64,000 nucleotides of DNA from Candidatus Woesearchaeota archaeon (GTDB taxonomy: Archaea; Nanobdellota; Nanobdellia; Woesearchaeales; WAPY01), in the NCBI GenBank assembly GCA_049700835.1, contig JBNAUL010000002.1, forward strand, positions 62,001 through 126,000. The letters are read 5' to 3'. Every line of letters begins with the position of its first letter. Position 1 is the first letter of the stretch. This document shows, piece by piece, positions 15,001 to 18,000 of the stretch. Made by a program: the position numbers.

Positions 15001-18000
15001 TGCTTTTGCAGGCAAAAATATTATTCTAAGAAGATTTCTTTTTAAGCATAAAAAATTCCTCAGCAAAAGATTTGGCAATTTGAGAATTTTCAATTACAAC
15101 TAAATTTTCAAAATTGCTCAATGCATTATAGCTCGGATTAAAACTTCCTGTGATAACAATATTTTTGTCTATAATAAAAACTTTATGGTGAAGATTGTAA
15201 GGATTTGTGTCATTGAAAAGAATGCCTCTTATGACTTCAGGGCTTCTTGAATAAAATTTTTTTTCAATTATTCCCTCTGCCAAAATACCTTCCTTTATTT
15301 TTTCAGCAATTCTCTCTGCAATGCTGTTGTCAGTGAAACTAAAGGTCATAAAGTAAATGCTTTCCTTTGATTTTTTCAATGTTTCAAGAATTAAATTTCT
15401 GCAATTCTGAAATGGCGAGAAACATATTCTCAAAGAGATGTTGTTTGAAGGATTTTTTATCTCAACATATGAGCTGTTTTTCAAAATTCCTGAAATCTTT
15501 GAACGCTCTCCATTTTCTTTTGGCTCTTTTGGCGCATTAAAATCACTCATATTAATTATGCTCAAAAAATCGTTAAGGTAAAACTCTGCAGCAATTCTTG
15601 ATTTTATTACAATGAGGTTGTTGTTGTTTAGATAAGCATCCCTGTAAGTAGGATTCATGGAACCTGTGATTACCACATTCTCATCCAATATGCAATATTT
15701 GTTGTGCATCACAGAAGAGGTATTAATATGGGTTATGCCATAATACTCTGATTTCAGGTTTTTGATATAAACCCCTACAAAATAGTCGTTCTTTGTCTTC
15801 AAAATTTCGCTGATATTCTCTAAATTGAAATCATAGAATAAACATCTTATGCTACTTGAACCTTTTAACATATTGATTAAAATTTCAGAGCAGTTGTCTC
15901 TTGGGCAGAAATAAGCATATATAGAAATGTTATCTAAAAAATAAATTGGTTTTTTTTCATTTCTGCCATAAGTGGGGTATTGCTTTTCATCATACTGCTT
16001 TCCATACAGATTTGAAGTTATGGTTAAAGAGAAAAGGCATAACAATAAAACAAGCAAATATTTGCAATGTCCTATGAAAAATTTTAAAGATTTTCTCAAA
16101 AATTTATCCTTCACGCTTTCATTTGTTTTTTTGGAATTATTAAATGCAATCTCTTATTTTAGAATTTTTTTTCAGAAATAAAATCAATGTTCTAGTTTTC
16201 TTATGTAACTTGCTACTGAGAATATTGTTCCTGGATGAAATTCTTCAACTCTGTTGAGGAAAAACCTTATCTCCTTGTCAGGACTATCTCTTTTTGTAAT
16301 CACAAGGTCTCCTATCTCCTTTAGCTGACTATCCCTTAGAACATTCTTTTCTTTAAGAAATCCTTTCAAAGCATTTTTCTCATCTTTAGAATGCTCCTTT
16401 GATAGAATGCAGAACAGGAAACTTTCAGAATCAAGCAAGCACTCCAACGGTTTTATCAAACCTGCTTTTGGTATGTATCCTTTGATGCAAGGTTTTTTTC
16501 CTTCAACTATGCTCTTTATGAACATCGTTGCAGTGTCGTTTGCTGTCCAAGGGATAAAAATCTTTGCAGATTTTTTATAATCGTTTGGTATTTTAAATTT
16601 ATATCTAGAATTGATACGCTTTATTTCATAGTTTCTATTTTCTGCTTTTGCTATTGGTAACACTATTTGCAACAAGGTTTCAAAATCATGGCTTGAATCA
16701 TCAAGAAAAACAAACCTTTCTCTACCTTCAAAAATCTTTTTCTTTCTTAAATTTTTTTTAACCCTTGAACTCAAAACTCTGAGGAAATGTTCTCTACATA
16801 GTGGTCTTGAAAAGCCATATTGTATTTCTGCTTTTTTGTTGCAAATCGAGCATTTCATTTTTATTTCTTCTATTCCAAGTGTTTTTTGAATCTTAAAACT
16901 TTCCATCTTTTTATCAAGGCAAGAATGAGAATGCAAACTCTTGGATTTACAACAATCTTTTCTCCTGATGCTAAGAGCATCGGGATGTCGTTCTTGCCGT
17001 CAGAACAGCTTGCGCTCTTTTCAAGATTAATTCCATTTTTAATTGAGAACTCTTTTATTATGTGGTATTTGTTCCACTTCATTGCATACCTTATTATTTC
17101 AAAGCTTTCTCCGCGCAAAGCTATTTTAGAACTTAAATTGTAATCAACCTTAAGGAATTTTTCAAGGGGCTTCAATATGATGTCAGGGGTTGCACTTATC
17201 ATTACTATTGTATAACCCTCTCTTTTGTAATTATTTATTAATTCAACAGCGTCTTTAAAAATTCTCGGCTTCACTTCCTCCTGCCAAAACCTTTCTATTA
17301 TGTCATTCACTATTTCAGCGCTCTCTCTTTTTCTGAAATACAGATGCATCTTTAAAGTTGAATTGCATTTTATCAGCCCAAGATAGTAGAGCAGTTCATA
17401 AAAAAGCCCTTTTAAGAACATTCTCTTGGATATGAGCCTATTTTTAAGCAGGAATTTCAAGAACAAAACAGGGGTTGAGCCGTCAACTATTGTATGATCA
17501 ACATCAATGAAAAGCGCTTTATTCTTGCCTTTCTTTTCAGCTTTGCTCTTTTGTTCTTTGTTCATTTAATTTCTGTATTTTTGTTCTGTTTTTAAATTTT
17601 GTTGTAAAACAAAAATAATTATGTTACTACTTTGATATACTCAAATATCGAAAAATTTAAATACTACTTAATATATTCTACTTTATAGTAAAAAATATTT
17701 TACAGGGTTCATTGTCTATCACCTCTTTTTCCCAGGGCAAACACAGTAAATGTGTTTGCCATGGGTTTTATGTTAATCTTTTCTTAAAAATTGCAAATTT
17801 GCAAATTAGATAGATTATGCAACTTATTCTGCAAATTTATAATGCAAATTATCAAACCTGATTTTCTATTTTGATTTTGCTCGTTTAGAATTCTTGAATT
17901 TAAAGTTCCTTTTGCTTAATAGAGATTTTCTCTTGCAAAGAAAGAGCACTGACAAGAATACTGAGCTTGCAACGAAGATTCCAAGAACTAAACAAAGAAT

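Follow-up and report, generated by a model that had tools for sequence, protein, structure and literature searches.

Archaea are held to rely on a single stand-alone NcsA for tRNA thiolation (PMC10067955), and in the related TtuA, activity depends on three cysteines and the ATP-binding residues (PMC3980101). The replacement of homo-oligomeric tRNA enzymes by heteromers is described as a common eukaryotic route (PMC10067955). Ctu2 has the NcsA fold without the Fe-S cysteines and has been modelled in the place of the second monomer of the homodimer, and Ncs2 contacts the tRNA body in published models (PMC10067955, PMC10450187). Study of what Ctu2 contributes is hampered by the insolubility of the recombinant human protein (PMC10067955). 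Pairing of a thiolase with a pseudoenzyme has so far been described only in eukaryotes, and the family examined here suggests that it probably also occurs in DPANN archaea. Our literature search returned no description of an archaeal inactive NcsA/TtuA paralog, and supplementary orthology tables could mention the family; passages of PMC6313347, PMC12084879, and PMC7138817 contribute nothing on the dimer or the finger.

The dead paralog and its anatomy

The window, i.e., the whole stretch of DNA that was analysed, comprises 64,000 nucleotides of a Candidatus Woesearchaeota genome (assembly GCA_049700835.1, contig JBNAUL010000002.1, positions 62,001 to 126,000). It contains the gene under study and the following parts of it:

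16184..16906, minus strand: dead NcsA/TtuA paralog gene, 240-aa ORF from the ATG at 16906
16787..16852, minus strand: N-terminal zinc finger (C3/C6/C21/H24; 82-84% of the 91 aligned dead copies have each Cys)
16742..16795, minus strand: basic helix, family motif ExRxRKxxR (R32 in 84%, K35 in 84%, R38 in 78%)
16691..16708, minus strand: site of the lost PP-loop, with SGG deleted family-wide (joint alignment)
16532..16552, minus strand: GHNxDDE replaced by PWTANDT (PWTLDDE in the family consensus)
16490..16522, minus strand: predicted dimer interface, part 1, residues 113-123 (complex prediction, covariation)
16187..16273, minus strand: predicted dimer interface, part 2, residues 196-224, motif E-K-Y/H-P-x-T-K-F-S-L (complex prediction, alignment)

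A second ATG at 16858 gives a 224-aa product whose N-terminus lies at the zinc finger, and residues are numbered here by that form. Either start codon may be used: of two close relatives, one was called with an extension like this and the other was not. The sole Pfam match of the protein is a sub-threshold one to TtuA_LIM_N; across the family, weak matches to TtuA_LIM_N and to the NCBIfam NcsA model occur in 12 and 54 of the 92 members, respectively. At E<0.001, a 13-member profile matched exclusively NcsA/TtuA structures (6scy, E 7.4e-16), and hhalign related the dead-family profile to the active copies with 99.2% probability. The AlphaFold model (92-row alignment, pLDDT 87) has NcsA 6scy as its closest structure (Z 16.4, rmsd 2.6, 186 residues aligned), followed by TtuA (5mko, PH0300; Z 15.1) and then TilS (Z 12.6); as modelled, the fold is TilS-like and nearest to NcsA/TtuA. 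The ORF, the profile and hhalign matches, and the fold bear out the first-pass annotation in calling the gene a degenerate NcsA/TtuA paralog.

What the family has kept and lost was read from an alignment in which 91 dead copies were joined with 137 active ones. The N-terminal finger is intact in 71 of 88 dead copies, and the LDDE helix, E145, and the last two helices are also retained. SGG, the block with CxxC, GH from GHNxDDE, and the third cysteine together with its arginine have been deleted. So has the entire C-terminal finger, which is present in none of the dead copies examined and whose loss the first-pass annotation had not mentioned. SGGxDS is absent from all 92 members, all 150 best representatives, and all 120 further homologs. 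Lacking both the three cysteines and the ATP-binding residues on which TtuA activity depends, the dead family therefore cannot carry out TtuA thiolation chemistry. The alignment thus agrees with the earlier statement that the N-terminal finger is kept while SGGxDS and the active-site cysteines are gone; the PWTLDDE motif reported with it holds as the family consensus but not for the window copy. The zinc finger and the basic helix are the best-conserved parts of the family, and the helix with R32, K35, and R38 is more basic than its counterpart in active copies and is a candidate tRNA-binding surface.

Distribution, descent, and gene neighbourhood

Dead copies occur in 95 of 161 genomes (59%) of the order Woesearchaeales at a completeness of at least 85%, in line with the previous estimate of about half. 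A first profile found 91, and a deeper, 92-row profile added 4 divergent copies hidden among the 70 genomes first scored without one. The unpublished genomes G105, G124, and G165 are included in the 161-genome counts, the alignments, and the covariation, and G429 is in the held-out set; G165 and G429 each enter one dN/dS pair, and no conclusion rests on unpublished genomes alone. A class-wide search gave short matches in at least 63 genomes outside the order; the 29 of these that were retrieved come from 13 families and none has SGGxDS (0/29), so that the dead family extends to at least 13 other families of the class. Related homologs are found in records named Pacearchaeota and Nanoarchaeota, and homologs at E<=1e-10 form 1,235 clusters at 50% identity, a count that may include active copies. 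The phylum-level draw contained same-class genomes exclusively, and a contig scan with one dead-family protein gave five loci. A weak search among longer proteins gave no longer or fused forms. The dead copies are one conserved, unnamed family, now annotated as hypothetical.

Trees from a quick search, with a single bacterial protein as root, put the 44 dead rows together on the same side of a branch that has an SH-aLRT of 99 (90 in another tree), a grouping behind which attraction of the long branches is possible. The dead clade is placed among the active copies of the class itself, and families group alike in both paralogs. L081 (G084), as well as L308 and other copies from family f139, are less degenerate, their motif regions still being like those of active NcsA, and they diverge early within the dead clade; they are possible intermediates or products of a separate duplication. 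The dead copy at L045 (G133) continues into a 160-residue tail which, from a motif noted by eye, presumably resembles an M23-type peptidase and may be a read-through or an assembly artefact.

The ESM Atlas holds a 310-member cluster of ~182-aa proteins with TtuA_LIM_N in 65% and Methanobacteriota as the commonest label, Atlas taxon labels being unreliable for range; it may represent dead paralogs from beyond DPANN, or its records may be mislabelled. L348, a record with Methanosarcinales in its title, has NcsA at the same contig place as a genome of the order studied here.

The gene neighbourhood in the window is as follows:

17866..19821, minus strand: Lon_C (S16) protease gene, upstream, conserved in 65/92 loci
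16870..17565, minus strand: HAD hydrolase gene, flanked by the protease and dead-paralog genes, outside the recurring neighbour families
15026..16114, minus strand: phospholipase D (PLD) family gene, downstream, conserved in 65/92 loci

The S16 protease neighbour marks the orthology of dead-copy loci; no functional link to it emerged. Near the protease gene, 10 of 10 checked genomes without a dead copy gave no dead-profile match, and outside the order, class-level dead copies have different neighbours. Upstream of the protease lies a small kinase gene (window 19901-20506, minus strand; Pfam RIO1/Kdo), which we take to resemble Bud32 of KEOPS; L335 and L336 also have a gene of this sort ahead of the protease.

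Relation of the dead paralog to the active thiolase

The single active family member of this genome (G000:C3:109556-110461) keeps SGGKDS, CxxC, GHNxDDE, C205, and the C-terminal finger, and its sequence confirms that it is without the N-terminal finger, as had been reported. Active copies are present in 91 of 95 genomes with a dead copy (one being a contig-end fragment) versus 52 of the 66 lacking one (p=0.0015, with no correction for kinship). In a held-out set, 53 of 54 further dead-bearing genomes have one, giving 144 of 149 when pooled, and the earlier claim that nearly all genomes with a dead copy also encode a catalytic NcsA therefore stands. The 4 of 95 genomes in which a dead but no active copy was found are drafts of 95-98% completeness, the 13 genomes in which no family member was matched all lack a dead copy, and 52 genomes have the active copy alone. 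The two genes were not found side by side, again as first described, the closest case being one genome in which they lie ~6 kb apart.

Prediction of the active-dead complex scored 0.83 against 0.00 for the best of three controls, with runs agreeing in at least 98% of contacts and a partner pLDDT of at least 78. Of 157 solved pairs 116 attain the pass mark, as against 2 of 215 mismatched ones, rates that hold approximately for custom alignments; since NcsA/TtuA homodimers have already been solved, a pass may reflect likeness and not binding. The predicted interface, formed by residues 147-156 and 212-252 of the active protein and 113-123 and 196-224 of the dead one, joins equivalent segments of both, as in a two-fold dimer. 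Its columns are not more conserved than the remainder of the dead protein (p=0.43).

Covariation was measured over 25 listed contacts in 83 genome-matched pairs, from which second, divergent active copies were excluded. The mean z was 0.70-0.91 across three alphabets, with entropy-matched nulls lying near 0 (entropy-matched p<=0.0006; within-interface permutation p 0.0004-0.024), and the signal fell to about 0 when genomes were mispaired; the complex prediction may itself have paired its input alignments, so that some circularity is possible. The residue pair active 240/dead 117 ranked 3 of 40,921 in one alphabet, a large aromatic at active 240 accompanying I/V/T at dead 117 in 15 of 20 versus 13 of 63 pairs. 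Taken alone, 59 held-out pairs gave a weak, non-significant signal (z 0.04, 0.18, 0.30; p 0.38, 0.17, 0.10), below the z of 0.48-0.60 that subsamples of 46 pairs from the first set would predict. The 240/117 pattern, named beforehand, was repeated in them (8/16 vs 8/41, p=0.026), as nothing else was, and was not significant in just 6 phylogenetically independent pairs. In the 142 pooled pairs, the signal was kept or raised (z 0.76, 0.71, 1.2).

At comparable contacts, the inter-protein z in the three alphabets was 0.64, 0.78, and 1.1, versus 0.65, 0.15, and -0.11 within the dead protein, where only the first value represents a (weak) signal (p=0.013); inter-protein pairs gave a signal at least as strong as that of their equivalents inside either the dead or the active protein. 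A positive control, homodimer covariation in partner-less active copies, was negative and probably underpowered at 51 rows. The 12 active-copy columns that best distinguish partnered from partner-less copies include 236, 223, 240, and 219 of the interface, an enrichment that 1 of 400 matched draws equalled. G236 is found in 20 of 51 partner-less active copies versus 0 of 87 partnered ones, and F223 in 28 of 51 versus 6 of 87, the partner-less copies deriving from few clades.

The N-terminal finger had been offered as a further argument, having been reported missing from the active copy in 6 of 9 genomes with the dead paralog and in 0 of 4 without it. This reciprocal loss does not hold up: the main active copy is fingerless in 39 of 88 genomes with a dead copy (one dead copy being unclassified) versus 16 of 52 without (Fisher p=0.15), and both copies are fingerless in 5 genomes. 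Fingerless active copies belong mostly to one clade, and loss of the finger tracks loss of the SAMP/ThiF sulfur relay, with ThiF present in 70 of 86 finger-bearing versus 19 of 55 fingerless genomes and a SAMP/ThiS neighbour in 49 of 86 versus 2 of 55 (both uncorrected for kinship). Zinc-finger complementation was therefore rejected as evidence of partnership. ThiF is not associated with the dead copy (58/95 vs 41/66). In this genome (98.7% complete), neither ThiF nor ThiS was found over the cut-off, so the active enzyme probably takes sulfide directly. Finger loss in active copies accompanies the loss of the SAMP neighbour, ThiF, and E61/R67, and some fingerless copies adjoin cysteine desulfurase or IscU-like genes; they are possibly a carrier-independent NcsA subtype.

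The active enzyme may act on U34 or on U54, of which U34 is the likelier. R213, 8 residues past the third cysteine and found in 192 of 193 active copies, matches by spacing Arg241 of NcsA, a position at which TtuA has Thr (PMC10067955). E61 and R67, the commonest residues at their sites, are likely equivalents of Glu88/Arg94; counting against the reading, this genome's active copy has the TtuA-type L61/S67. SAMP and UbaA-like genes are among the neighbours of active copies. Intron-bearing tRNA-Lys(UUU) and tRNA-Glu(UUC) genes are present in this genome, and MnmA gave nothing over the cut-off there. An m5U methyltransferase, again a point against, is encoded; members of that family, present in 41 of 161 genomes, show no association with the dead copy (25/95 vs 16/66, p=0.85). 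Introns were seen in 11 of the 40 tRNA genes called in this genome, lying before the anticodon in Lys(UUU) and Glu(UUC), and no clear Gln(UUG) was among the 40. A divergent clade of second active copies (L248-L254, from G009, G107, G114, G117, G130, and G164) has TtuA-type residues, mostly lacks R213, and is a candidate group of U54 thiolases.

Taken together, these observations lead us to regard the dead paralog as probably the non-catalytic subunit of a heterodimeric tRNA 2-thiolase, an analog but not a member of Ctu2. An early ncsA/ttuA duplication in the class, as sequence and tree show, yielded a catalytic copy and a shrunken, non-catalytic one. The latter is predicted, with support from covariation, to replace the second subunit of the ancestral homodimer, docking via a pair of helical segments located after GHNxDDE and after the third cysteine. 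By the known NcsA/TtuA chemistry, the active subunit would bind ATP and a [4Fe-4S] cluster and thiolate the uridine, presumably U34 rather than U54, while the dead subunit may stabilise it and help hold the tRNA by its zinc finger and basic helix. Such an enzyme would work as Ctu2/Ncs2-containing ones do, probably from a separate origin.

Other readings of the dead copy have to be weighed against this. It might act independently of NcsA and bind tRNA or another RNA in monomeric or homodimeric form (as a chaperone or as the helper of another enzyme), the co-occurrence reflecting shared inheritance. The conservation of the basic helix and finger, the unlinked genes, the signal within the dead protein in one of three alphabets, the weak held-out covariation, and the four genomes in which no active copy was found all fit this reading, yet we consider it rather unlikely: at comparable contacts, the inter-protein signal equals or exceeds that within the dead protein in each of the three alphabets, the interface of the active copy differs where the dead copy is missing, and almost every dead-bearing genome has an active copy. 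The same interface evidence would also suit a dead copy that binds the active one as a regulator or specificity switch and not as a required subunit, be it an inhibitor or a means of using a heterodimer for one target base and a homodimer for another. The retention of the enzyme in the 52 genomes that have lost the dead copy fits such a role, as does the proposal that a Nanoarchaeum equitans TtuA homolog makes m5s2U54 (PMC7337903). We hold it to be improbable, given that the m5U methyltransferase family is not associated with the dead copy and that partner-less lineages have a distinct interface signature, as expected under forced self-pairing.

A role in the S16 protease/phospholipase D gene cluster, with no tie to tRNA thiolation, draws on a position between the two genes that is kept in about 70% of order loci. 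The neighbours persist without the dead copy (in G022, protease is followed directly by PLD), class-level copies have other neighbours, and NcsA co-occurrence and covariation would be left unexplained, which makes this role highly improbable. Large deletions, fast evolution, and a copy in two frames at a contig end (G002) might recall a decaying pseudogene, but frames are intact across the class, and the 1,235 clusters, although they may include active copies, also argue against decay. With dN/dS values of 0.11-0.23 in 7 close pairs of dead copies (dS was saturated in 2 further pairs), the family is under purifying selection; this refutes the pseudogene reading, to which we give next to no probability. 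The non-catalytic thiolase subunit thus remains our preferred reading. The original proposal of a tRNA thiolase partner is accordingly retained for a dead, conserved paralog that accompanies an active copy and most likely, by prediction, pairs with it, and is given up as far as the zinc-finger argument goes.

Comparison with Ctu2 and other known systems

If true, heterodimeric thiolases would be found in more than half of a large archaeal order as an instance of convergence, and nature would supply lineages with and without the partner for comparison. A likely role would be assigned to a large family now annotated as hypothetical, and a partner of 170-220 aa would offer a minimal model for the contribution of Ctu2. 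A second apparent split, of ThiI/TtuI, suggests a wider trend in reduced genomes. Directly upstream of the active NcsA, a ThiI/TtuI protein (G000:C3:108512-109534, plus strand; L001:3513-4538) combines ferredoxin-like and THUMP domains and is without SGGxDS; a separate frame at G000:C3:103385-104068 (minus strand) consists of a PP-loop domain alone and has SGGIDS. Among ThiI-THUMP neighbours of active copies, 19 of 22 are without SGGxDS, 9 of these in fully seen frames.

With NcsA (M. maripaludis, 6scy) and TtuA (PH0300, 5mko), the dead family shares the fold, the N-terminal finger, the LDDE helix, and the C-terminal helices; those enzymes are active homodimers, whereas the dead copy is without the PP-loop, the three cluster cysteines, the GH, and the C-terminal finger. 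Like Ctu2/Ncs2, it has the NcsA fold without the [4Fe-4S] cysteines. Ctu2, in contrast, keeps its zinc-finger sites and has gained added regions (PMC10067955), with zinc at both ends in a published model (PMC10450187); the dead family, at a median of about 180 aa, has been deleted and not expanded, never has a C-terminal finger, and is optional across lineages. The CTU2 domain PF10288 is not among 25 of the 80 families matched by the 92 members at E<=0.1, the other 55 having one weak member match each; a genome scan for PF10288 was blank, as was its control. With no PF10288 match listed, no C-terminal finger, and deletions instead of insertions, we do not file the dead family under Ctu2, and "Ctu2-like", the term first applied to it, is sound as an analogy but not as membership.

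It is very unlikely, in our view, that the Ctu1/Ctu2 split predates eukaryotes and that the dead family and Ctu2 stem from one archaeal duplication, the DPANN protein being a stripped-down Ctu2. We keep this reading because an ESM Atlas look-alike search returned a Ctu2 cluster at 0.85, which is a lead only, and because of the 310-member cluster labelled Methanobacteriota; the placement of the dead clade among the class's own active copies and the difference in architecture argue against it.

The (alpha-beta)2 tRNA splicing endonuclease, whose beta chain is a non-catalytic subunit, belongs to a protein family unrelated to the dead NcsA/TtuA family. Found in Nanoarchaeum equitans, TACK archaea, and Methanopyrus, it goes back to an archaeal tRNA-processing homo-oligomer that duplication divided into two kinds of subunit (PMC5829648), so that subunit splitting of archaeal tRNA enzymes is already known.
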